Assembly: GCA_963749455.1 (NCBI GenBank)
Contig: CAVVMX010000045.1
Coordinates: 39,181 to 103,180 of the forward strand
DNA length: 64,000 nucleotides
Direction of reading: 5' to 3'
From: an uncultured Chloroflexia bacterium
GTDB taxonomy: Bacteria > Chloroflexota > Anaerolineae > JAAYZQ01
Shown: positions 9,548 to 64,000 of the stretch, piece by piece
How positions within the stretch are numbered: the stretch's first letter is position 1
How the letters are laid out: each line of letters begins with the position of its first letter
Program-made: the position numbers and the translations under genes
Notes under the pieces: generated by a model
Databases searched by the model: none
What the model saw: only the letters and a program-made list of their open reading frames with translations
Told to the model about the DNA's origin: nothing

Positions 9548-9751
9548 ATGGACGATAGACCTGGGTGCTTGGGCGGACTGCTGCGACTCACCATCATAAC
9601 AGCAGCTTTCGACTGGCTGCAGAAGCGCTTTGGCTTTGGACGCGGAGTGTCGTGCAGCGGCTGCGGCTGCGGCGTGATTCTGCTGCTCATCTTTATCGTG
9701 CTGGTGTGCGGCACCTGCTCCGGCACCAATTGGTTCGACTTCTCATTCTAA
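9548..9751 (+). CDS. small Cys/Gly-rich membrane protein, hypothetical
   Basis: ORF 9503..9751. The likely start is ATG 9548, after GAAGGGAGG. MDDRPGCLGG...CSGCGCGVILLLIFIVLVCGTCSG. No family recognised. Confidence 0.4.
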   Translation: MDDRPGCLGGLLRLTIITAAFDWLQKRFGFGRGVSCSGCGCGVILLLIFIVLVCGTCSGTNWFDFSF

Positions 9752-9755
9752 GCAA

Positions 9756-9796
9756 GAACCCCGGTTCCTCACTCAGGGAACCGGGGTTCTTCTTTG
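9756..9796 (+). terminator. rho-independent terminator between convergent genes
   Basis: GAACCCCGGTTCC (9756-9768) / GGAACCGGGGTTC (9777-9789), followed by TTCTTTG. Confidence 0.55.
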
Positions 9797-9798
9797 TC

Positions 9799-10496
9799 CT
9801 AGTCGCCGCCGCCGGCCTCCGGATCAGGATGAAGAAAGTAGTAGAGCAGCGTCGACAGGGACTGGGCCAGGGCCGCCACGTAGGTCAATGCTGCCGCATT
9901 CAAAACCGCTTTCGTCTGCTGCAGCTCTTGCCCGTTGGCCAGTTGGTAATTCTCGAGCATCTGCTGGGCCCGCTTGCTGGCGTTGAGCTCGACCGGCAGG
10001 GTCACCAGGGCAAAGACGGCCGTGCCGGCAAAGAGGAAGCAGGCCGATCCAGGCCACCGTGGTCGACCCGGTGTAGGTGCACAGCAGGAGGCCGACGAGA
10101 AAGACGATCGGCCCCAGCCAGGAGCCGATGTTCACGATCGGCACCAGCCCGGCCCGCAGCCGCAGCGGGCTGTAATTGGTCGCGTCCTGGGTGGCGTGGC
10201 CTATCTCGTGGGCGACAATGCCCAGGGCTGCTACGGACGGGCTGTTTGCTACCCCGCTGGACAACCTCAGGACGTCCTTGCCCGGATCGTAGTGGTCGGT
10301 GAGCGTGCCTGACGTCCCTTCCAACCTGATGTGGTCCAGCCCGGCGCTGCGCAGCAGGATGCGGGCGGCTTCCTGGCCCGTAATCCCCCGTGCGTTTGGC
10401 ACCTGACTGTAACGGCTATAAGTCGACTTGACCTTCCACTGAGCATACAATGCCAGCAGCAGGGCCGGCAGGGCAATGATCAAAGTAGGTCAACAT
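9799..10496 (-). CDS. YugP-type zinc metallopeptidase (frame breaks near ~10040 and near the start)
   Basis: ..IIALPALLLALYAQWKVKSTYSRYSQVPNARGITGQEAARILL...GIVAHEIGHATQD. The C-terminus continues in ORF 9799..10005 (LPVELNASKRAQQML...). HExxH motif and the membrane topology of the Zn_peptidase_2 family. Confidence 0.75.
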
Positions 10497-10711
10497 CTTG
10501 TCTTCACCTCTATTACCGCTGTGAATTCGAGGGTTCTCTTGAGCACCATCGCCTTCATGACACCCACCTGCGGCAGATTGTCATAATCACATTCGCACGG
10601 CCCACCTTGGGCGCAGCCAGGGCAACAATAGGCCTTGCCGTCCACGATGGTGGGCTGCCAGCGGATGGCGATCCCACAATTGGCGCAAACCGGAGGCTTC
10701 GCATGGTGCAT
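10490..10711 (-). CDS. small Cys-rich putative metal-binding protein
   Basis: MHHAKPPVCANCGIAIRWQPTIVDGKAYCCPGCAQGGPCEC... The CxxC ... (Y/F)CCxGC pattern resembles the N-terminal metal-binding domain of cation-transport ATPases (FixI/CcoI-type). A TGGTATAAT box and GGAACAGGGAG RBS lie just upstream of the ATG at 10711. Confidence 0.5.
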   Translation of the reverse strand: MHHAKPPVCANCGIAIRWQPTIVDGKAYCCPGCAQGGPCECDYDNLPQVGVMKAMVLKRTLEFTAVIEVKTRC

Positions 10712-10846
10712 GGTGAGCAGACTCCCTGTTCCATTATACCACATATGCAGCCATTTTAGCCAGTCAGTATTAGACGAATGCTAGAACGCCGTTAGAGTTA
10801 CGTTAGACTCCCGGGAAAAACAGCTGGAGCCTACAGATGGAGATAT

Positions 10847-10875
10847 TTGCCAGCTTGAGGGTTCTAGGGTACAAT
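10847..10875 (+). promoter_or_regulatory. sigma-70-like promoter
   Basis: TTGCCA-N17-TACAAT, upstream of the GAGGAGG RBS and GTG at 10916. Confidence 0.35.
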
Positions 10876-10915
10876 TTCTCTTCTGATCGAGAGGCGCCAT
10901 TGAGGAGGTGGCATT

Positions 10916-11158
10916 GTGAGCTTTCTGAAACAGTCAGTTCACTACCTGGGTTTGTTCGCTGGCCTGGCGACCATCGGGGCTGCCGGGGCGGTCTTGCTCA
11001 CCTATCTGTTCACCGGCAGGCTGCCTGTGATCAAAATGGCAAGGGGATGAAAAGCCCAAGTTGCAGCTTTGTTCCCCTGACGAGATCGTAACCCTGATGC
11101 GTCAGCACACGAGCGGCGCCGAAGCAGCCGCCAAGCCGTCGGTGGAGATAGGAGAATA
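10916..11158 (+). CDS. small membrane protein, hypothetical (possible frameshift near ~11045)
   Basis: GTG 7 nt after GAGGAGG gives VSFLKQSVHYLGLFAGLATIGAAGAVLLTYLFTGRLPVIK.. A neighbouring frame continues ..GDEKPKLQLCSPDEIVTLMRQHTSGAEAAAKPSVEIGE*. Both pieces are below the ORF-track cutoff. Confidence 0.3.
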
Positions 11159-11164
11159 ACAGCC

Positions 11165-11545
11165 ATGGACAAGCGCAAGAGCAAGTCGGGTGGGGTCCTG
11201 GGTAGCCTTCTGGCCCTGCCCTTCGACTTTATCTCCGGCTACCTCGTCGGCCTGCTTGCACCCGTTGCCGCTCTGGCCGCCATCGTCGGCGGCATCTACC
11301 TCTTGACCCGCAAGGTGCCCTTCCTGAGCCATACCTGGCCTGACCGCGACGCGGAGGGAGAGCAGCATCTATCGCTCAAGCTGATGCCACCTGATCAGGC
11401 TCAGGCAGTATTTGTCCGAGAAAAGGAACGGATTAGCGCAGATCTGAACGCCATGGGTGCCGAGATCAAGGCCCTTGCCGAGCAGGCCAAGGGCCAGCCG
11501 CCAGAAGCAGGCGGCACGCGAGCTGCCATCTCTAAGGAAGACTAG
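11165..11545 (+). CDS. hypothetical membrane protein
   Basis: 126-aa ORF with a hydrophobic N-terminal half and a charged coiled C-terminus. No family recognised. Confidence 0.5.
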   Translation: MDKRKSKSGGVLGSLLALPFDFISGYLVGLLAPVAALAAIVGGIYLLTRKVPFLSHTWPDRDAEGEQHLSLKLMPPDQAQAVFVREKERISADLNAMGAEIKALAEQAKGQPPEAGGTRAAISKED

Positions 11546-11554
11546 AACCGCAGT

Positions 11555-13505
<1,951 letters not shown>

Positions 13506-38709: not shown

Positions 38710-40057
38710 ATGGCCGAACATGTCTACGTCGAAAAGATCGCCGATCATGTCGGCAAAGAGGTAACTATCAAGGGCTGGCTCTATGCCAAGACCGGCAAGG
38801 GCAAGCTCCAATTCCTGCAGGTCCGCGACGGTACCGGAATCATCCAGTGTGTCGTCTTCAAGAAGGAGGTCTCTCTCGAGGCCTTTGACGCGGCCCAGCG
38901 GCTGACACAGGAATCGTCCCTGGTCGTCACCGGCCTGGTCCGCGCCGACGAGCGCGCGCCGGGCGTCCCCGGCGGCATCGAGATCGACGTGACCGACCTG
39001 GAGGTCGTCCAGTTGGTCACCGATGAATACCCGATCACCCTCAAAGAGCATGGCATCGACTTTTTGCTGAGCAACCGCCACCTGTGGATCCGCTCCTCGC
39101 GGCAGTGGGCCACATTGCGGGTGCGGGCCACGATCATCAAGGCCATCCGCGACTGGCTAGACGACCATGGCTTTATCCTGATGGATACGCCTATCCTGAC
39201 GCCGGCTGCCTGTGAGGGGACGACCACGCTGTTCGAGACCGACTATCACGGCACACCGGCCTACCTGAGCCAGAGCGGGCAGCTCTACAACGAGGCCGAC
39301 ATCATGGCCTTTGGCAAGGTCTACTGCTTTGGACCGACCTTCCGCGCCGAAAAGAGCAAGACCCGCCGCCACATCCAGGAGTTCTGGATGGTCGAGCCGG
39401 AGATGGCCTACGTGGATCTGTGGGGGAACCTGGAGGTCCAGGAGCAGTTCGTCAGCTATGTCGTCCAGACCACGCTCGAGCGAGCGGCGCAACGAGCTCA
39501 AGCTGCTGGGCCGCGATCTGAGCCACCTGGAAAGGGTGCAGCCGCCCTTCCCGCGCATCCACTACGACCAGGCGGTGGAGATGATCAACCGTGCCGCCGC
39601 AGCCGGGCTCGTGGTCCCGCCCAATGACGAGCCGGTGCCGGCCATTACCTGGGGGGACGATTTTGGCTCGCCGCACGAGACCTACGTGGCATCCCAGTTC
39701 GACCGGCCGGTCTTTGTCCATCACTACCCGACCGCGGTCAAGGCTTTCTACATGGCCCAGGAGCCAGACCGGCCTGAGACCTGCCGCTCTGCAGACCTGC
39801 TGGCGCCGGAGGGGTATGGCGAGATCATCGGCGGCGGCGAGCGCTCCGGCGACCTGGCCTTCCTGGAAGCTCAGATCGAGCGCCACAACCTGCCCCGCGA
39901 CGCCTACCAGTGGTACCTGGACCTGCGGCGCTACGGCTCGGTGCCGCACAGCGGCTTTGGTCTGGGCCTCGAGCGGACCGTCATGTGGATCTGTGGCCTG
40001 AGCCATATCCGCGAGACGATCCCATTCCCGCGCCTGCTCGGCCGCATCTATCCATAG
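38710..40057 (+). CDS. asnS: asparagine--tRNA ligase (one frameshift near ~39480)
   Basis: OB-fold N-terminus ([18 protein letters not shown]), class IIb core: [28 protein letters not shown], then frame 39311.. [54 protein letters not shown]. Confidence 0.9.
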
Positions 40058-44116: not shown

Positions 44117-45774
44117 TCAAGCTTGCCAAAGGGCAGGTTTTGTGCGACCAGACCCAACTGACAATGTTTCTTCGATTGGGCGTAGGATGCAGCTGACGTG
44201 GGCCACTTTCTGTCCATTTTCTACCGCAAGCGTAACCCGCACATCCAAATCCTCGATAACTCTGCGCTTTTCGGCAAAGTCTGCATTTGCCAAATTTAAC
44301 CCCCGGCTCGCTTTGGCCGCAAACCCCTGCAGACTCCGAATCTGACCGGGTGTGAGTGTCCGCTTTTGCAGGTGGGCAACTAGAACGACCCGCTCTCTTT
44401 CCAGAGCTTTTATGGTCGTTTCCAGCCGTGCCTCTCTGTCAGAAAGTATCTCCTTTGGAAAGCGTGCAGAAAGGTACAGGTCCAGCAGCCGCTCCAGTTG
44501 TGTGCGATTTTCGGCCAATAGGTCATCAATTACCTTCAGCCGGCCCCGGATCGGTTCGGTTTCCCGCTCGCACTGCGCTTGGTGCTCGTCCAATCCCCGC
44601 TTCAGTGCTTCCGGATCGCTGAGAAGGGACTTGGCCCATCCCCACACAGCGGCATCAACCCGATCTACTCTGAACCCGGTCAGGTTGCACTTGCGTGCTG
44701 TCGTCATCGTACTGGTGTGCCCTGGACACTGGTAGTACAACGATGTGCCAGCTGGGTGTCCTGTGGCACGATTGGCCTTACCTGTCATCTTTAGTCCACA
44801 GTCCCCGCAGATCACACGGCCGCTGAGAAGGTAGTCTCGCTTCCGGTTGCGCCTGGAGTTTTGCCGATTCTCAGCTAACCGCTCCTGGACTGCTTCCCAC
44901 ATCGGTTCCGACACAATCGGCGGCACCCTTACAATGAGGTGGGTCTCTTGGGGAGTCTGTACCCGCTTCCCGTTGCTGCACTTGGTCTTGCCGTACCGCC
45001 AGACACCCTTGTAGGTTTCATTCTTCAATATCTCGTAGATGACTGAGCGAGACCACTCCCCCTGCCCCCGCTTCTTCCAGCCGCGATCCACCGGGCAGGT
45101 GTCGCTATGGGTCGGTATCTTCATACTGGTGAGCCCTCTAGCTATATCAGACAGGTTCATAGGTGTGGCGTTGGCGTCTCCCTCAACGTAATAGTGATAG
45201 ATGAGACGAACAACCTCAGCTTCTGGCTCATAAACCACCAGCGCAAACCTGCCTTCTTCTTCAACCTCTCGATACCCGTAAGGCGTGATCCCGTGGGTCA
45301 GCACACTTCCGGCTTTGACCTTGTCGTGGCTGACCACGCACCATTCTTTCTGTGATCTTTTCCCGCTCATACTCGGCGATGGTCGCCCGGATGTGCTTGT
45401 TGAGGCGTCCTTCGGGCGTGTCGGCGTACTCGCGCAAGCGCATACTCGATACGCACGCCGGCCCGCCTCAATTCCTCTTCGACGATCAACTGCTTGGCGA
45501 GGTTGCGGCTCAGACGGTCGAATTTCACGCGGTATCAGCACGTCAAACTCGCCGGCCTGTGGCCATCTCTCGGATACGAGTCAGCCCTTCCAGCTCAAAG
45601 GCCGCGCCGCTCGCGCCCTTGTCATCTTCGCTTAGCTCCGCCACGATCGTGATAGCCCTTTGCCTATGCATACTGCCGCGCCATCTCCAGTTGGCCGGCG
45701 AGGTTGCGCCCGTCGGTGTCCCGGTCGTCATAGCTCGTTCGGGCGTACAGCACCGCCCGTTTTGCCGTTGCCAT
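44117..45774 (-). CDS. large serine recombinase (about 4-5 frame breaks in the N-terminal resolvase domain)
   Basis: MATAKRAVLYARTSYDDRDTDGRNLAGQLEMARQYA / ..GEFDVLI.REFDRLSRNLAKQLIVEEELRRAGVRIEY / ..EGRLNKHIRATIAEYEREKITERMVRG / ORF 44117..45541 with recombinase domain, Zn-ribbon (CGDCG ... YYQCPG) and C-terminal coiled coil. Confidence 0.85.
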
Positions 45775-56347: not shown

Positions 56348-57689
56348 ATGACCGGAATCAGCGAGTGCCACACCTGCCCGGCTTTCGGGGAGTTCTGCGA
56401 GGGGAGCGCCGAAGTGCGCCGCCGATTGCCGCGAGCTGGAAGGCTGGCTCGATCCGATCGGCGGCCTGGCCCTCGACGCTGCCCCTGGCGCCTCAGCCCT
56501 GGTTCGACCTGCCGCCCTTCTTCCCCCAGCTGCTGAACGGCCTGGAGGTACCCTCGGTGCTGGCCCGCGAGCCGGCCGTCGCGGTGGGCATCGCCAAGGC
56601 GCTGACGCCCAGGGGCAGGGTCTCCCACCGCGCCATCCCGGCCCCCTACTCCACCCGCAGCCTGCGCGCCCAGTGGGGCATCGGCCAGGACACGCGGCTG
56701 CTGTGCCTGGGCAACTACGTGGACGGCTACCTGGAGCGGCTGTGGGCGGCGCAGGCCGGCGAGAACGCCTGGGGCCACCTCCAGGCGCTGGGCTTTGACG
56801 CCGCCACCAGCCTCAACTTCTCCATCTACCTGGACCGCCCTCGCCTGGAGCACCTGGTCAACATCAAGCGCTCCTGGCTGACGGTGCGGCGGATGCAGGA
56901 GACGAGCGGCCTGGTCCCCATCCCCCACCTGCAGTGGGCCACCATCCTGGATCTCGAGCGGCAGCTCCGCTACGCCCAGGAGCAGGGCTTCCACACCCTG
57001 GCGCTCAACCTGCAGATGATCAAGCGCCAGGGCTGGGACACCGTGGCCGCCGGGCTGCCGGTCATCCGGGAGCAGGCGCCCGAGATCCGCCTGCTGTTCG
57101 CCGGCGTGGCCTCGCTGCGGCGGATGGCGCAGCTGGCGACCCTGTTCCCCACCGCCTCTTTCACCAACACCACCGCCCACTACCTGGCCCAGCGCCACGT
57201 GCGGCTGCGGCGCGACGGCATGCGCCTGATCAAGGAGCCGGTCGACGGCCACCCCGACCTGATCCTGGCCGAGAACGTCCGGCTGTACCGCGATTTCGTG
57301 GCCGAAGCAAGGGGCCAGAGCGCCGAGTCCCCAGCGCCCTCGCCGCAGGCCGGCAACCACCTGTACGCAGCTCAACAGGAGGTTGCGGCTGCTCTGCAGG
57401 CCCGCTTCGGCTACGACCCCGAGCAGGCAGCAACCGCCGCCGAACGGCTGGCCGTGGACGAGGCGATCCTGGCCGCCTGCCAGCACTGGCTGCGCACCGG
57501 CTCCCTGGACCGTGACTTCCAGGGCTCCTTCCCCGACTGGCCGTGCGCCGGCTGCGTGCCCCATCCCACCCTGGGCGACCTCCTGGACGGCGGCAGGTCT
57601 CCCGCTCGAAGCCTTCCTGCACCTGGCCGGACCTGGCCCGCCAGGTGGACGAGGAGATCCAGGCCTTCGCCGGCCTGGCCGGATATTGA
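56348..57689 (+). CDS. hypothetical protein with N-terminal Cys-rich (zinc-ribbon-like) segment (about 3 frame breaks)
   Basis: MTGISECHTCPAFGEFCEGSAE / CAADCRELEGWLDPIGG / ..QPWFDLPPFFPQLLNGLEVPSV...LLCLGNYVDGYLERLWAA..ATSLNFSIYLDRPRLEHLVNIKRSWLTVRRMQETSGLVPIPHLQW... No confident family assignment. There is a loose resemblance to DUF4417-type proteins. Confidence 0.4.
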
Positions 57690-57701
57690 GGGGGTAGAGC
57701 G

Positions 57702-60700
57702 ATGGGTTGGGCAAAGAGCTCAGGCCCGAAACGGACCGCCTACCGGCTCGGCAAACCGCCGGCTGCGGCGCTGCGCGAGACGCCGCCCGGCACAGGTGCA
57801 GGCATCGGTCTTCGCGTCAGGCGGCTCTGCGAGGGCGGCAGTTGAGCTCCCGGCTGAGACTGCCGGCCAGGGCGCCAGAAGTGACGAGCGCCACCAAGCG
57901 CGACCGCCGGGCGCTGCCGGTCTATGACGTGGCCACCGGCCAGGACCTGGAGACGCCGGTCAACCTGGACAACACCCTGCTGCAGGCCATGTTCCCCGAC
58001 CTGCGGATCGCCCTCGGCCAGGTCCCGCCACCGCCGGCGCACAGCTCCCCCGAGCAGCTCGAAGCCTACTACCAGGCCGTCATCCAGGATCTCGCCAGAG
58101 ACCTGGCCGATCAAGAAGGTCTGTCCCTCGACGTGGCCACCGGCGCCCGCAAGGAGGGCCGGTTCATGTACACCGACGGCCAGGTGGGCCGCAAGGTGGC
58201 CGACACCTTCGAGAAGGTCATGGCCTACGGCGGCCTGCTGGCCTCCCCCTGCCAGCACCCGCCCCAGCTCGTGGAAGGGCTGCGCGTCCTGGTCGTCAAG
58301 CAGGGCGAGATGGGCACCGGCGACTGCGCCGGCAAGATGAGCGCCCGCCTGGCCGAGCTCTTCGGCAAGGACGGCACGCAGGCCGGCCAGTTCCGCCTGG
58401 GCGTCCAGCTCGACGAGGACACGATCCTCGTCGGCAAGGGCACCCTCAAGCTGATGGACCGGGTCGATGTGGACGCCGAGGGGCGAGGCTACGACCTGAT
58501 CCTGCCCGACCGCTCGTTCAAGGGCAACGCCCCGGCCCTCGGCGAGCACACCTGGGACTGCCACCTGGGCTTTGTCGCCTGGTCGCAGGAGCGGCGGACC
58601 AGGCTGAGCTACCAGGCCCTGCAGTGGTTCACCCCCGAGGTCGTGCAGCAGACCATCTTCCCCCGGGCCGACGCCCAGATCCCGATCCTGCTGGAGGCGA
58701 TGGCCACCACCGAGGGCGCCTGCAAGTACCTGAGGATCGAGCGGGAGAACCTGGACGCCGAGGCCCGCGAGACGCAGCGGGGCGAGCTGGCCGTCGAGGA
58801 GCTGCGCGAGCCGGCCGTCCTGGAGGAGGTGCTGGCCGCCGACACGACCGGCGAGATGATCGACCACCCCTACGTCCAGGCCGGGCTGCGCCGGCGGCTG
58901 AGGCAGTCGTGGCACGACCTGGCGGTGGGCGGCGGGGTGCGGGTGCCGTCGTTCATGGGCCTGCCCGACTCGTTCCGGGGGCACGTGGACTGGCTGCCCG
59001 ACGGCTGCATCGTCTGCCCCGACCTGCCGCCCGGCGAGGTGCTGGCCACCCGCTACCCGATCCGCACCCGCCACGACGTGCAGATCTGGCGCAACCTCGA
59101 CTGGGACAGCGCCTTCAAGCTCGACCGCCCTGGGCGGGCGGATCGACCCGGCGACCATGCGCAGCTTCTTCAGGTACGCCCAGCAGCACAAGGGCGTGGT
59201 GTTCATGAGCCACGCCACCGCGGCCAAGGTGGGCGGCGACTTTGACGGCGACAACTTTCAGATCATGCCGGTCTCCCGGCAGCACAGGCCGCTGGCCGAG
59301 ATCCGCAACCCCAACCGCGACTGGTCGGACCTGACGCCGCTGGTCGAGCAGGTGCGCCGCGAGGGGTGGGGCCAGGAGGTGACCACGCCGAAGGTCAAGC
59401 GCCGCCTGGCGACCCACGTCGCCCCCGAGCGGCCGGAGGATGTGACCGACAGGAACCGCCCCTGGCTGGCCTCGGCCGCCATCCACCAGGGCGGCCACCG
59501 GCAGCAGTTCCTGGCCGATCTCGGCCAGCACCTCGATGCCCAGGCCCTGGATGCCGAGAGCCCGGCAGAGCTGCTGCCAGACCCTGGCCGACGCCGCACA
59601 ACACCCCGACCAGAGCCTGGATGCCGCCGTCGAGGTCGCCCAGGCCCACGGCTTTGACGCCCATGCCTGGATCAGCCGAGCGCGAGCCGGACCTGTTCGC
59701 TCTGGCGAGGGCCTACAACCGCGAGCAGCTCGCCCGCCAGGCGCTCAAGAACATGGACTCGGACCTGGGCCAGATCGTCTACACCATCTCCCGGGTCAAC
59801 GCCTCGGACAGGTACGCGCCGGAGCAGAGGGAGCGGCTCATCCTGCGCCTGGCCGAGGAGCTGCAGGCCGAGGTGGACAAGTTCAAGTACGACACCGCAG
59901 CCGACATGGAGTTCGTGGACGCGGTCCGCAAGGAGGTGGGCCGCGACCTGGTGTGGCTGGACGTGCACAAGGACCCCGACACCTTCTCCCGGACGACCCA
60001 CCTGTCGCCCAAGCCGGACGCCGTGTCGCACCTGTGGAACCACGTCACCGGCCAGTTCCGGGCCTGGGAGCGGGCGCCCCAGCCGCCGAAGCACTTCCAG
60101 GGGATGCTGCCGGCCGAGTACAGCCCGGAGCAGCTGGCCGAGGCCCGGCAGCGGGTGCGGGCCTACAACCGGGCGGTGGCCCGCGTCGATCCAGACCGGC
60201 GACGAGAAGGCGCTGGTCAGCGCCATCCAGGAGATGGAGAGCTGGAGCGACTCGGTCACCGACCCGCAGGAGCGGCGCACCTGGGCGCAGGCGGTGTGGC
60301 ACGCCGCCCACGACACCGACCGGCCGGGCGCCACCGCCTCGGCGGCCTTCCACGCCTTCCGGCCCGAGGTGCTGGAGCAGCTTGGCCGGCCCCAACCCCG
60401 CCCCATGAGCGAGATCGTCATCCTCGGCGCCCAGCACCCCAACAACCTGGGCGAGCGCATCGCCGAATATGAGCAGCCGCGCACGGTCCGGCTGCAGGTC
60501 CTGCTGGAGGATTACCAGGACACCTACGGCCGCCCCGAGCGCCGCCTGGCCGCCTACGAGCTGGGCGACGACGACCGGCCGGTCCAGCGCATCGGCTACC
60601 TGCCCAAGGACGCGCCCCGCCAGCGAGGGCAGTTACCTGGCCACGCTTCAGAGGCAGGAGGGCAAGAGGCGCATTGAGGGCAAGCTCAGCCCACTCAAGG

Positions 60701-60726
60701 GCTACGAGGATGGGAAGGATGCCTGA
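57702..60726 (+). CDS. large (~1000 aa) two-barrel polymerase-like protein resembling cellular RNA-dependent RNA polymerases (about 6 frame breaks)
   Basis: Stitched from ORFs 57707..59245, 59157..59657, 59366..60472, 60234..60677 and 60469..60726. Colinear blocks: GTGDCAGKMSARLAE; AGQFRLGV..GKGTLKL; DLILPDRSFKGN; LSYQALQWF; GEVLATRYPIRTRHDVQIW; GVVFMSHATAAKVGGDFDGDNFQIMP (DbDGD metal-binding signature). Confidence 0.55.
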
Positions 60727-60788
60727 CAGAACGCACCCGGCGGACCGATCCGACGCCGGAGGCGGACACACCCGCTTTCACCTTCTAC

Positions 60789-61430
60789 ATGGCCGACCTT
60801 CTTCGGCTGGAAGAGATCATGCCGGAGCCTGACCTCCGGCAGGATCTCGCCGACCGGCCAGCTCGGGTTCGTCGTGCGCGCGGCCCGGCGCATCGCCCGG
60901 CGTTACCCTGGCGTCGATCTGGACATCCTGGACCTGATCCAGGAAGGCAACCTGGCCCTGCTGCAGGCGGTCAACGAGTGGCTGGACTGCCCGCCGCGAG
61001 CTGCTCACTTCCACACCTTCATCGCCCGGCGGGTCGAGAAAGCCATCCGGCAGTGCGCGGATGGCGCCTGGCGGGAGAGCGCCAGGTCCTGCTCGCTGGA
61101 GGAGCACTGGGACGAGCTGTGCCAGGTGGAAGCGCCCGCGCGAGCTCGAACCGGAGGAGCGCCTGATCTATCGCGAAGGACAGGAGACCATGATCGCGGT
61201 GCTGGGCTCCCTGGACCGCAGGCGGAGAAAGGTGGTCGCCCTGCGCTGCGGCTTCTGCGACGGCCGGCAGAGGACATTCGAGGAGATCGGCCAGGCGATC
61301 GGCGTCAGCCGATGCGCGGGCGGGGCAGTTGATGGCGTCGGCCAAGAGGATCCTGCGCCACCCCATCCGCTCCCGCAAGCTGAGGGATGTCTGGCTGCGA
61401 TCTAGGGCTAGTGACGGGGAGGCAAAGTGA
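60789..61430 (+). CDS. sigma-70-family factor (about 3 frame breaks)
   Basis: ..VRAARRIARRYPGVDLDILDLIQEGNLALLQAVNEW...FHTFIARRVEKAIRQ (regions 2.1-2.4), ..LEPEERLIYREGQETMIAVLGSLDRRRRKVVALRCG....RTFEEIGQAIGVSR.R..Q (region 4 HTH). Confidence 0.65.
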
Positions 61431-61438
61431 ACGGTGAC

Positions 61439-62512
61439 ATGGCTTTGACGACGACAGGCAATGCCCCGGCAGCGGGGCTCCCGGACGACGCGACCGTCTG
61501 GCGCAGGCGGGATGATCACCCTGCACCGTCGGCGACATCCCGGAGAGGATGAAGCGCAGCAGGTTGGGCAGCTCACTGGACGATCTTTGCCCGGTTCCTG
61601 CGGCTGCGCGTGGCCGACGGCGACGCCAGCCCGGCCACGATCTACACCTACCACACCCAGGCGGCTCAGTTCGTGGCCTGGTGCCAGGGAGCGTGACCTC
61701 CAGCCTGCCGCCGCGACCGAGGAGGACATCATCGCCTACCGCAAGCACCTGCGTGGAGGCAGGCTACAGGCGGACAACGGTGGCCCTCAAGCTGGCCGTC
61801 GTGAAGCGGCTGTACGAGGCGCTTCGTCTGGCGCGGGCTCAGGGCAGACAACCCGGCAGCCGGGGTGAAAGCGCCGCGGGACCGCACCGTCCAGGATGAG
61901 CGGGTGAAGTACCTCCCGCTGGATGGGCTGAAACGCCTGCTGGTTGCTCCCCAGGGGGACAGCCCACAGGCGAAAAGGGACAGGGCGGTCCTATCTCTGA
62001 TGGGCATGCACGGCCTGCGCGTGGCCGAGGTGGCAGGCCTGCAGTGCGACGATGTGGACCTGACCGCCGGTGTGGTCAGGGTTCTGGGCAAGGGGCGAAA
62101 GATGCGCACGGTCTATCTCATCGAACAGACGGCGGAGCTGCTGGCTGCCTGGCTGGAGGTGCGAGGAACCGTAGCCTTGGGTGAGGTCTGTTCCTTCTTT
62201 GTCGCGGTTGGTCCGAACGGCACCGGCACAGCCCTCACCACACGCGGCGTCCGCTACCTGGTCGACAAGTATCTCGCGGCTTTGGGCCTGAAAGCGGAGG
62301 GGATCTCCTGTCACGCCCTGCGCCACAGCGCCGCGACGTGGGCGCGGGCGGGGGGCGCCAGGCTGGATGCCATCGCCGGCATGTTGGGCCACACCAGCAT
62401 CACCACGACGAGCATCTATGCCAGGCTCGTGGATCGGATGACCGAGAACCCGGCGCGGTATCTTGAGGCGATGATGGGAGTCCAGCTTCCCCAGCAGACA
62501 GAGGGGCGGTGA
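61439..62512 (+). CDS. tyrosine recombinase/integrase, XerC/D-like (about 4 frame breaks in the N-terminal SAM-like domain)
   Basis: ..FARFLRLRVADGDASPATIYTYHTQAAQFVAWC / EEDIIAYRKHL / EAGYRRTTVALKLAVVKRLYEAL / intact ORF 61865..62512 with GLRVAEVAGLQCDDVDL, VLGKGRKMRTVYL, HALRHSAATWA, LGHTSITTTSIYA (catalytic Y). Confidence 0.85.
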
Positions 62513-63291: not shown

Positions 63292-64000
63292 TCAAGTGGT
63301 CGGCATGGGCAAGGGAGAGCCGGTCTTGCGCCGTGACTCGCCCTTGAGGGTCAGCCGATAGGCGTTGTGAACCAGGCGATCGAGGATCGCGTCGGCGATC
63401 GTCGGATCCGGGAAGCGGGCGTGCCACTCGGCCACGGGCACTTGAGTGGCCACCAGCGTCGAGGATCGGTCGTAGCGATCGTCCAAGATCTCCAGCAGTT
63501 CTTGAGACTGGGGTCGGGTCAGCGGATCCCGGAGCCAGTCGTCGAGGACCAGGAGCTCGACATGGGCAAAGTCGTCGAGGAGTTGGCGATAGGAGCCGTC
63601 GGCGTGGGCCAGGGTGATCTGGTGCAGGAGGCGTGAGGTGCGCTCGTAGCGGACATGGAAGTCGTGGCGGCAGCAGGCGTGGGCCAGTGCACAGGCCAGG
63701 AAGGTCTTGCCGGCACCGGTCGGGCCGAGGACGAGGATGTTGAGATGTTGGCGGATCCACTCGCCCTCGGCCAATTGGAGGACGAGGCGACGGTCCAGGC
63801 CGCGAGAGGGAGCGAGGTCAAGGTCTTCGATGGTCGCTGGCGATGGCAGCCGCGCAGCCTTCAGGCGTCGTTTCAGACGGTTGTTGTCGCGGTGCAGGCA
63901 TTCGCGATCGACCAGTAAGCCGAGACGATCCTCGAAGGGCAGGTCGGCGTACTGGGGATTGTGGAGCTGCTCTTCGAGAGCGGCGCGAAAGGCAGGCAGC
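63292..64000 (-). CDS. istB: IS21-family helper ATPase IstB (5' end beyond window)
   Basis: The frame is open to the window edge: ..FEDRLGLLVDRECLHRDNNRLKRRLKAARLPSPATIEDLDLAPSRGLDRRLVLQLAEGEWIRQHLNILVLGPTGAGKTFLACALAH (Walker A)..LLVLDDW (Walker B)..TLVATQVPVAEWH..ADAILDRLVHNAYRLTLKGESRR. Confidence 0.85.
   Translation of the reverse strand, partial: LPAFRAALEEQLHNPQYADLPFEDRLGLLVDRECLHRDNNRLKRRLKAARLPSPATIEDLDLAPSRGLDRRLVLQLAEGEWIRQHLNILVLGPTGAGKTFLACALAHACCRHDFHVRYERTSRLLHQITLAHADGSYRQLLDDFAHVELLVLDDWLRDPLTRPQSQELLEILDDRYDRSSTLVATQVPVAEWHARFPDPTIADAILDRLVHNAYRLTLKGESRRKTGSPLPMPTT
63292..64000 (-). mobile_element. partial IS21-family insertion sequence (istB present; istA expected beyond window end)
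   Basis: IstB is normally encoded directly downstream of istA within IS21-family elements. The terminal inverted repeat was not identified. Confidence 0.55.

Follow-up and report, generated by a model that had tools for sequence, protein, structure and literature searches.

An RdRP-like two-barrel polymerase predicted on an integrated mobile element of an Anaerolineae bacterium

What does a gene encode that can be read only in fragments, and for what would a mobile DNA element use its product? This question is raised by a locus in a stretch of 64,000 nucleotides (the window) of contig CAVVMX010000045.1, which belongs to the assembly GCA_963749455.1 of an uncultured Chloroflexia bacterium. At positions 57702-60726 (+ strand) the listing of open reading frames (ORFs) contains no single long ORF, only overlapping ORFs in rotating frames. 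A sequence-only reading of the region had joined these ORFs into one protein resembling the cellular RNA-dependent RNA polymerases (RdRPs) of eukaryotes. Our results indicate that the locus almost certainly encodes a single-chain two-barrel (double-psi β-barrel) nucleotide polymerase of the RdRP-like/YonO-like branch, together with QDE-1 and RDR2. We place the gene on an integrated element, conjugative or mobilizable, in an Anaerolineae (Chloroflexota) bacterium, and the best explanation, to which we assign a probability of about one half with the identity of the enzyme included, is that the polymerase makes RNA primers on the single-stranded DNA of this element.

The polymerase gene extends from the ATG at 57702 (MGWAKS...) to the TGA at 60724-60726 on the + strand. 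Homologous proteins of other assemblies, used as intact or partial tblastn queries, align collinearly along the region in the frame order 2, 3, 1, 2, 3, 1, and the MGWAKS N-terminus forms a first piece, in frame 3, ahead of this series. The repaired protein consists of 985 amino acids, stitched from seven segments with six frame changes and zero internal stops (table 1). The pieces are 70-80% identical to proteins from other Anaerolineae assemblies, intact genes of 954-1062 codons among them, and therefore the joined reading frame is not a product of chance. The intact ortholog P0023 (locus L007) has 954 amino acids and is 74% identical; in loci L009 and L011 the intact orthologs are ORFs of 999 codons (9869-12868) and 1062 codons (9641-12829), respectively. 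The collinear alignments and the intact orthologs bear out the earlier proposal of one protein of about 1000 amino acids, whose start, end and every quoted motif were correct. That the gene is split also holds, whereas the count of five pieces was too low. The intact single-gene orthologs in the three loci argue against the pieces being separate, unrelated genes.

To which family does this protein belong? Relatives were collected with phmmer in an exhaustive comparison with 1.84 billion representative proteins (E<=1e-3), and they form 314 clusters at 50% identity; the conservation counts and the profile described here rest on an alignment of 84 members (A1). Lys225, Gly226, Lys253 and Asp494 are invariant in this alignment (each in 84/84), and Asp187, Gln209, Arg211, Pro248, Pro432, Asp492 and Asp496 are nearly so: Gln209, Arg211, Asp492 and Asp496 are present in 83 of the 84 sequences and Pro432 in 82, while Arg430 is found in 65. 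Eight residues have been described as invariant in all two-barrel RNA polymerases (RNAPs), namely the three Asp in the metal loop plus a fourth Asp, a pair of Lys, an Arg and a Pro (PMC2919709). All eight have counterparts in the repaired polymerase, and seven of them are conserved in 82-84 of the 84 members. The additional metal-binding Asp of two-barrel RNAPs (Asp709 in QDE-1, Asp837 in Rpb2) has its counterpart in Asp187; the equivalence to Asp837, Lys979 and Lys987 of Rpb2 and to Arg446 and Pro448 of Rpb1 is inferred from the hidden Markov model (HMM) alignment to RDR2. Judged from these alignments, the polymerase carries a complete predicted catalytic set, which consists of Asp187, Lys225, Lys253, the element R430-x-P432 and the triad D492-F-D494-G-D496. 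The DFDGD metal triad, which the sequence-only reading had singled out, is also kept in cyanobacterial plasmid homologs at 23-30% identity.

When the A1 profile was compared with the sequences of the PDB, the nine best matches were all two-barrel RNAPs. The match to maize RDR2 (7w82/7w84) has a whole-sequence E value of 1.2e-8 and consists of three collinear stretches, which cover both barrels and the C-terminal region; the third stretch, at profile positions 593-685, lies in segments E/F, downstream of LQAEVDKFKYD. Arabidopsis RDR2 (E 5e-4), QDE-1 (E 4e-3) and the RNAP of Thermus phage P23-45 (E 5e-3) were matched as well. The 84-sequence profile was needed for these matches, since a phmmer comparison of the repaired polymerase itself with the PDB sequences gave nothing relevant.

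The predicted structure leads to the same group of proteins. The AlphaFold2 (AF2) model of the repaired polymerase, computed with A1 as the input alignment, has a pLDDT of 83.6 and a pTM of 0.79, with residues 1-46 disordered. The best Foldseek matches of this model are maize RDR2 (7w82, E 2.8e-13, TM 0.45/0.47, 940 columns), QDE-1 (5fsw, E 4.9e-12) and Arabidopsis RDR2 (7eu1, chain M, E 9.5e-12), and the alignments to RDR2 and QDE-1 span 926-991 columns. They are followed by phage single-subunit RNAPs (8f5m, 8f72, 8h2m and 6vr4, E 4e-8 to 2e-5), among which P74 gp62, P32 gp64, P23-45 gp96 and crAss gp66 are matched by fold. At E<=1e-3 all 13 matches are two-barrel polymerases, and beta-prime subunits of multisubunit RNAPs appear in the list only at E>0.008. 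The best named matches in BFVD are phage proteins annotated as RNA-dependent RNA polymerase. On the basis of the Foldseek matches, the model appears to contain two double-psi β-barrels that form the active-site cleft; the catalytic loop is followed by a helical insertion of about 110 amino acids, specific to the clade of the polymerase. The order of the conserved blocks, which had been likened to that of the cellular RdRPs, is recovered in the profile alignment with RDR2, and the structural comparison with QDE-1 and other two-barrel enzymes, which had been suggested as a check, gave significant matches.

In the cellular RdRPs (QDE-1, RDR2/RDR6), as in the polymerase, one chain contains both catalytic barrels, and the order of the barrels is the same. 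The cellular RdRPs have the motif series D-G-x-G-K-I-S, Q-x-R, K-G, [RK]-x-P and G-G-D-x-D-G-D in common with it, and their C-terminal helical region aligns too, so that the fold match extends over about 940 columns. However, the identity is only 11-13%, the similarity stays below the Pfam gathering score, and the polymerase is a bacterial protein with the insertion of about 110 amino acids, located on a conjugative DNA element without partners of RNA interference (RNAi). YonO of SPbeta is also a single-chain two-barrel enzyme of a bacterial mobile element, with an HU-like gene adjacent to its own; it has been shown experimentally to be a DNA-dependent RNAP that transcribes late genes from double-stranded DNA in a promoter-dependent manner (PMC5467207; Forrest et al. 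2017). The similarity of the family to YonO is much weaker than that to RDR2: when the A1 profile was aligned with the YonO sequence alone by hhalign, the E value was 0.002 and the probability 13.8%, although the 374 aligned columns run collinearly through all motifs. Whereas YonO is a phage protein of late-gene transcription, the members of the polymerase family reside on conjugative elements and plasmids; there was no tblastn match to the polymerase in 50,697 GenBank phage records, and the only phage link by sequence family is PHROG 34895, to which no function is assigned. The phage RNAPs (Thermus P23-45 gp64/gp96, P74 gp62 and P32 gp64, and gp66 of crAss-like phi14:2) share the two-barrel core, but their Foldseek scores and coverage are lower than those of RDR2 and QDE-1, they are transcriptases that in some cases are packaged into the virion, and they carry other accessory domains. 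The conjugative primases (Sog, TraC and the Toprim/AEP domains of polyvalent proteins) are functional analogs in the same niche, conjugative elements, with no relationship to the polymerase in sequence or fold; some members of the polymerase family, of about 1900 amino acids, have a polyvalent-like architecture.

The class itself is not new. In 2010 a catalogue of YonO-like proteins from firmicutes, cyanobacteria and Bacteroidetes already set apart a cyanobacterial family of its own (PMC2919709; Ruprich-Robert & Thuriaux), and the cyanobacterial plasmid homologs found here may belong to that family. Iyer & Aravind (2012) described cognates of the RdRPs in new kinds of bacterial selfish element, noted the fusion of the cyanobacterial versions to RNase H and proposed a primase role, as far as their work is represented in PMC3417536. 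In that account the class resembles the present family in being RdRP-like, in its location on selfish elements and in the RNase H fusion, re-found here as P0081; the REase/URI nuclease neighbours given there were not seen in the loci examined for the polymerase family. RNAi RdRPs have been derived from uncharacterised phage polymerases, the phage relatives being predicted DNA-dependent RNAPs (Koonin 2017, PMC5303251). The view that bacterial members are functionally uncharacterised has to be qualified, considering that YonO is a proven DNA-dependent RNAP (PMC5467207) and that the class has been described computationally (PMC2919709, PMC3417536). Since it was catalogued computationally in 2010-2012, the novelty is limited: as judged through PMC3417536, the locus extends a known, computationally defined class to the host phylum Chloroflexota and to the context of conjugative elements.

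The gene lies in an island of about 11 kb (approximately 51.5-62.5 kb), with a GC content of 70% (up to 73% at about 52000-62000) compared with about 62% in the window, in keeping with a foreign origin. Its gene order is shared with locus L008 of another Anaerolineae assemblage and runs from the coupling protein through HU, one or two genes without assignment, a conserved gene for about 445 amino acids and the polymerase to the tyrosine integrase. By tblastn the L008 integrase maps to 61583-62485 of the window. The integrase and the coupling protein lie together in this one island, as expected of an integrative conjugative or mobilizable element, in agreement with the sequence-only reading, which had placed the polymerase on a bacterial mobile element. 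The true coupling-protein gene may be spread over more than one frame. In L008 and L009 the integrase comes straight after the polymerase, without the small sigma-70-family gene that lies between the two in the window. Among the scanned ORFs of the island there was no DnaG, AEP or other polymerase, in line with the sequence-only reading, which had seen no second polymerase or primase in the island. As to the borders of the element, no convincing flanking direct repeats and no tRNA gene target were found.

Outside the island a gene for single-stranded DNA-binding protein (SSB) is located at 49056-49478, 8 kb upstream of the polymerase, and just upstream of it is an iteron-like tandem array of five or six 10-bp units (ACGACGCCCT; 48222-48355). 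A 50-nt inverted repeat with 80% complementarity (48079-48128 / 51173-51222) flanks 3 kb that contain the SSB gene and an unannotated ORF of 517 codons (49708-51261); these repeats may be the ends of a nested insertion. A large serine recombinase with no detectable N-terminal resolvase domain (44117-45541, - strand) and a truncated IS21 IstB ATPase (63292-63774, - strand) are further signs of mobile DNA around the island.

In which company are the relatives found? Close relatives are confined to metagenome-assembled genomes of Anaerolineae/Chloroflexota, with five close loci in a single-protein scan. Distant homologs of 23-30% identity occur on 37 cyanobacterial plasmids, of which 11 are typed as conjugative and nine as mobilizable. 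On Phormidium and Anabaena plasmids an HU gene is located immediately downstream of the homolog, and in SPbeta the HU-like yonN adjoins yonO; taken together with the Anaerolineae linkage, the HU-polymerase pairing spans phage, plasmid and integrative conjugative element (ICE) members. On plasmid pGLO7428.02 of Gloeocapsa sp. PCC 7428 (L023 1-8222) a homolog of 1185 amino acids is divergently adjacent to an AAA ATPase, dnaN and dnaX, which constitute a plasmid-borne replication gene cluster. The Phormidium plasmid homolog is near VapE and ParA, other plasmid homologs are near ParA or ParM, and Rho-N-domain proteins are encoded upstream of the homologs on Pseudanabaena and Synechocystis plasmids. 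Metagenomic relatives are located beside TraM and a lytic transglycosylase (SLT), beside P-loop_TraG, an integrase and a resolvase, or beside an orphan DNA methyltransferase. Some members are fused to other domains: RNase H/RVT_3 (1900 amino acids), DUF4326 (1899), an AlkB-like 2OG oxygenase (1221) and Macro (P0150). The giant and fused members resemble 'polyvalent' proteins, and the survey of such proteins in PMC5512222 makes no mention of an RdRP-like polymerase domain.

Considering this setting, the enzyme would polymerise NTPs de novo on the DNA of the element, and the likeliest template would be a single strand coated by SSB/HU, as it arises in conjugative transfer or rolling-circle replication. 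The RNA product could then prime complementary-strand synthesis by the host replicase, and the enzyme would be the non-DnaG, non-AEP primase of the element, a role that Iyer and Aravind proposed for the class in the account available through PMC3417536. Priming is favoured because the island has no second recognisable primase or polymerase and because SSB and HU travel with the polymerase gene. It is also favoured because RNA-DNA hybrids and replication are suggested by the fusions to RNase H and by the dnaN/dnaX genes beside one homolog, and because the nearest solved relatives, QDE-1 and RDR2, copy single strands (for QDE-1, PMC9508822). This support is circumstantial.

Several observations weigh on the other side. 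With the Pfam RdRP profile (PF05183), its only Pfam match, the repaired polymerase reaches 12.8 bits (E 0.046), and because the gathering cut-off is 23.8 it is a relative within the two-barrel superfamily and not a formal PF05183 member by the Pfam threshold. The homologs P0005 and P0016 score 12.8 and 13.2 bits, the intact ortholog P0023 has no match to this profile, and the raw frame pieces have no match in Pfam. Of 30 long, more distant family members, 11 match it at E<=1e-3 (best 1.5e-8), so the profile check after frame repair that had been suggested succeeded for these relatives and fell short for the protein itself. The TM values of about 0.45 are moderate and rest on a predicted model. 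As regards priming, the class is one predicted by computation, and YonO, the sole bacterial or phage relative with a characterised activity, transcribes double-stranded DNA in a promoter-dependent manner and is not a primase (PMC5467207). The HU adjacency mirrors yonN-yonO, and the immediate neighbours of the polymerase are TGT/DpdA-like and, in L011, DUF6884/DpdC-like proteins, not replication genes. Fusions to AlkB, Macro, DUF4326 and RNase H are also typical of anti-defence polyvalent proteins and are not specific to priming. Among the scanned ORFs of the window no relaxase, VirB4 or full mating-pair apparatus was recognised. Finally, this copy of the polymerase has Arg at a nearly invariant Ser position, which makes a recently inactivated gene conceivable.

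The main rival is the possibility that the enzyme is a transcriptase of the element, a DNA-dependent RNAP for a subset of its genes, such as early or 'establishment' genes, like YonO or the non-virion RNAPs of Thermus phages; it could perhaps transcribe directly from the incoming strand, independently of the host RNAP. Such a role is possible, if distinctly short of probable. It has a precedent in YonO, proven for the late genes of SPbeta (PMC5467207), with which the family is collinear in the weak hhalign comparison, and the phage relatives are predicted to be DNA-dependent RNAPs (PMC5303251). The fold matches include the phage transcriptases P74 gp62, P32 gp64, P23-45 gp96 and crAss gp66, but the best matches in both sequence and structure are RDR2 and QDE-1, which copy single-stranded RNA or DNA. 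The neighbourhoods are divided as well: an HU-like gene is adjacent in SPbeta, on the Phormidium and Anabaena plasmids and in the Anaerolineae element, and the Rho-N proteins on the Pseudanabaena and Synechocystis plasmids speak for transcription, whereas the RNase H fusions and the proximity of dnaN/dnaX are more easily reconciled with replication. The element's own sigma-70-family gene points to use of the host RNAP, although this gene is not conserved in the orthologous loci. A conserved promoter-like element was not found, though no search aimed at one was made. A genuine RdRP, which would copy or amplify RNA (transcripts, antisense or invader RNA) for regulation, anti-defence or defence as an analog of RNAi amplification, is improbable. 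The closest solved relatives by profile and fold, RDR2 and QDE-1, are indeed RNA-templated, some family members match Pfam RdRP with E values down to 1.5e-8, and the Macro, AlkB and RNase H domains of the fusions can act on RNA. On the other hand, QDE-1 is both a DNA- and an RNA-dependent RNAP and prefers DNA templates for part of its function (PMC9508822), and template preference is not revealed by sequence. No Argonaute, Dicer-like RNase III or other small-RNA gene was present in the neighbourhoods examined, there was no PADLOC defence-system match, and the consistent setting of the family is that of conjugative DNA elements and plasmids.

A further alternative concerns this copy only: it could be a real pseudogene on a decaying integrated element, its frame breaks true mutations, and without function in the host genome. 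Six frame breaks within 3 kb and the broken neighbouring HU, sigma and integrase genes, with in-frame stops in the HU region, would agree with decay, as would the IS21 IstB fragment that adjoins the island and the related loci and proteins of other assemblies (L008, P0003, P0014) that are likewise broken. The breaks themselves tell against it. The 5'-most one sits in the non-conserved N-terminal linker, and a nucleotide alignment with four intact orthologs (L013 in addition to L007, L009 and L011) shows that each of the five 3'-ward breaks, at about 59107, 59576, 59676, 60184 and 60624, is due to one inserted base. Deletions predominate in the natural decay of bacterial genes. The adjacent sigma-like gene has two further breaks of this +1 direction, and the integrase gene has one. 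As the GC3 frame plot was too noisy for counting frame breaks throughout the window, an asparaginyl/aspartyl-tRNA-synthetase-like gene (38710-40057, + strand), a housekeeping gene 20 kb from the polymerase and far outside the island, served as a spot check; it is split by one +1 frame change between the ORFs 38710-39627 and 39311-40057, and thus the assembly insertions are not limited to the island. The 985 repaired codons contain no nonsense codon, and the protein departs from the family at one of the 28 columns conserved to >=85%, which equals the family median. The sole departing column is residue 250, beside the catalytic Lys253, where Arg (CGC, 58499-58501) replaces a Ser present in 81 of 84 relatives, including all close ones; it is either a substitution error or a real change. 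Because the same +1 breaks are found in the sigma, integrase and tRNA-synthetase-like genes, the likeliest cause of the frame breaks is systematic insertion of single bases in the assembly and not decay of the polymerase gene, and the native gene is probably intact. A dead gene is therefore unlikely, and this possibility is in any case orthogonal to the function of the family elsewhere.

Table 1. Positions of the polymerase gene, its segments and motifs, the other genes of the island, and linked or fused homologs at other loci (loci with L numbers have their own coordinates).
Feature	Position	Strand	Evidence or remarks
Whole polymerase gene	57702-60726	+	~985 codons repaired; tblastn, stitching, intact orthologs of 954-1062 codons
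Segment A, frame 3, N-terminal MGWAKS... leader	57702-57803	+	Matches N-termini of homologs P0002-P0005
Poorly conserved linker, frame 3 to 2 change inside	57804-57865	+	Between segments A and B
Segment B, frame 2: N-terminal domain, first (beta-like) barrel, start of second barrel	57866-59125	+	tblastn, stitching, model
Segment C, frame 3: catalytic loop and start of clade-specific helical insertion	59127-59576	+	
Segment D, frame 1	59578-59676	+	tblastn, stitching
Segment E, frame 2: conserved C-terminal helical region	59675-60184	+	
Segment F, frame 3: motifs AQAVWHAAH and ASAAFHAFRPEV, C-terminal beta-rich domain	60189-60623	+	
Segment G, frame 1: C-terminal tail	60625-60723	+	tblastn, stitching
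Motif GTGDCAGKMSARLAE	58313-58357	+	D187 in 83/84; aligns with SDGIGKIS of plant RDR2
Motifs AGQFRLGV and GKGTLKL	58382-58405 and 58433-58453	+	Align with FQIRYGGYKG of RDR2
Motif DLILPDRSFKGN	58493-58528	+	P248 and invariant K253 (84/84)
Motif LSYQALQWF	58604-58630	+	
Motif GEVLATRYPIRTRHDVQIW, R-x-P element of second (beta-prime-like) barrel	59033-59089	+	Aligns with TKNPCLHPGD of RDR2/QDE-1
Motif GVVFMSHATAAKVGGDFDGDNFQIMP	59193-59270	+	Contains DFDGD
DFDGD, predicted catalytic metal-A triad D492/D494/D496	59238-59252	+	Aligns with GGDLDGD of RDR2 and QDE-1
LQAEVDKFKYD, counterpart of family LQ.AVD.LK motif	59861-59893	+	Q701 83/84, D705 78/84, K708 83/84
Type IV coupling protein (VirD4/TraG/TraD-like) ORF	52569-54728	+	Pfam T4SS-DNA_transf E 5.6e-18, TraG-D_C E 3.3e-17; NCBIfam VirD4-like CD1115 family
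HU-family DNA-binding protein gene	55017-55589	+	Out-of-frame patch and stops
Conserved gene directly upstream of polymerase	56348-57700	+	Present in L007, L008, L009, L011
Small sigma-70-family gene (regions 2 and 4) over three frames	60789-61405	+	Pfam Sigma70_r2, translations
Tyrosine recombinase (integrase), island end, one frame break	61549-62512	+	Pfam Phage_integrase E 6e-29
HU-polymerase linkage	Window 55017-55589; L014 20834-21112 and 21356-23875; L005 3706-4236; L006 10758-11273		
Giant/fused members on other conjugative elements	L016 3564-9266; L018 6173-11872; L017 2443-6108		

The gene directly upstream of the polymerase has more than 140 close homologs and is conserved in all Anaerolineae loci (L009 8477-9859, L011 8292-9785, L007 8585-9835 and L008 7487-8902). 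Its product has a Cys-rich N-terminus and a predicted TIM barrel (AF2 pLDDT 81), for which Foldseek gives tRNA-guanine transglycosylase (TGT; 7a4x, E 4.4e-5) and the DNA preQ0 insertase DpdA (7ui4, E 1.6e-4) with TM values of about 0.4-0.5. In L011 the preceding gene encodes a DUF6884 protein, which gives a weak DpdC-like match. This suggests, with moderate confidence, that the upstream gene is part of a DNA base-exchange/modification module for establishment or anti-restriction rather than a partner of the polymerase. An assignment of the upstream ORF to DUF4417 (weak, E 0.015) was not confirmed, the structure favouring the TGT/DpdA-like barrel. A partner common with the cyanobacterial plasmids was also considered and discarded: the window's upstream protein does not resemble the products of the genes that precede the Planktothrix and Anabaena homologs, and its gene is a lineage-specific neighbour. 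Membership in a known defence system is not supported, as neither the polymerase nor its upstream neighbour has a match in NCBIfam or PADLOC.

What, then, does the presence of such an enzyme on an Anaerolineae element mean? For the source genome, the polymerase gene is real and probably intact in nature, and its frame breaks flag an error-prone assembly. For the family, the ancestry of the eukaryotic RNA-silencing polymerases has been inferred from sequence alone, and reviews trace it to uncharacterised phage proteins (PMC5303251); here is a family that aligns with RDR2/QDE-1 across the whole catalytic region and resides on conjugative DNA elements. We tentatively suggest that, among prokaryotic lineages, this family could stand nearest to the eukaryotic RNAi polymerases and that it could serve its elements as a primase or early RNAP on incoming single-stranded DNA, possibly delivered with the DNA in polyvalent proteins. 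If this is true, eukaryotic RdRPs would descend from a priming enzyme of plasmids/ICEs and not from a phage transcriptase, and the ancestral synthesis of RNA on single-stranded DNA templates, as kept by QDE-1, would be directly testable in bacteria. A bacterial group so near to RDR2 and QDE-1, and known by computation, is worth study. The enzymology of an intact member would reveal whether the pre-eukaryotic enzyme primed, transcribed or copied RNA, why HU-like genes accompany the polymerase, and whether a third kind of primase, unrelated to the others, is at work in conjugative elements.

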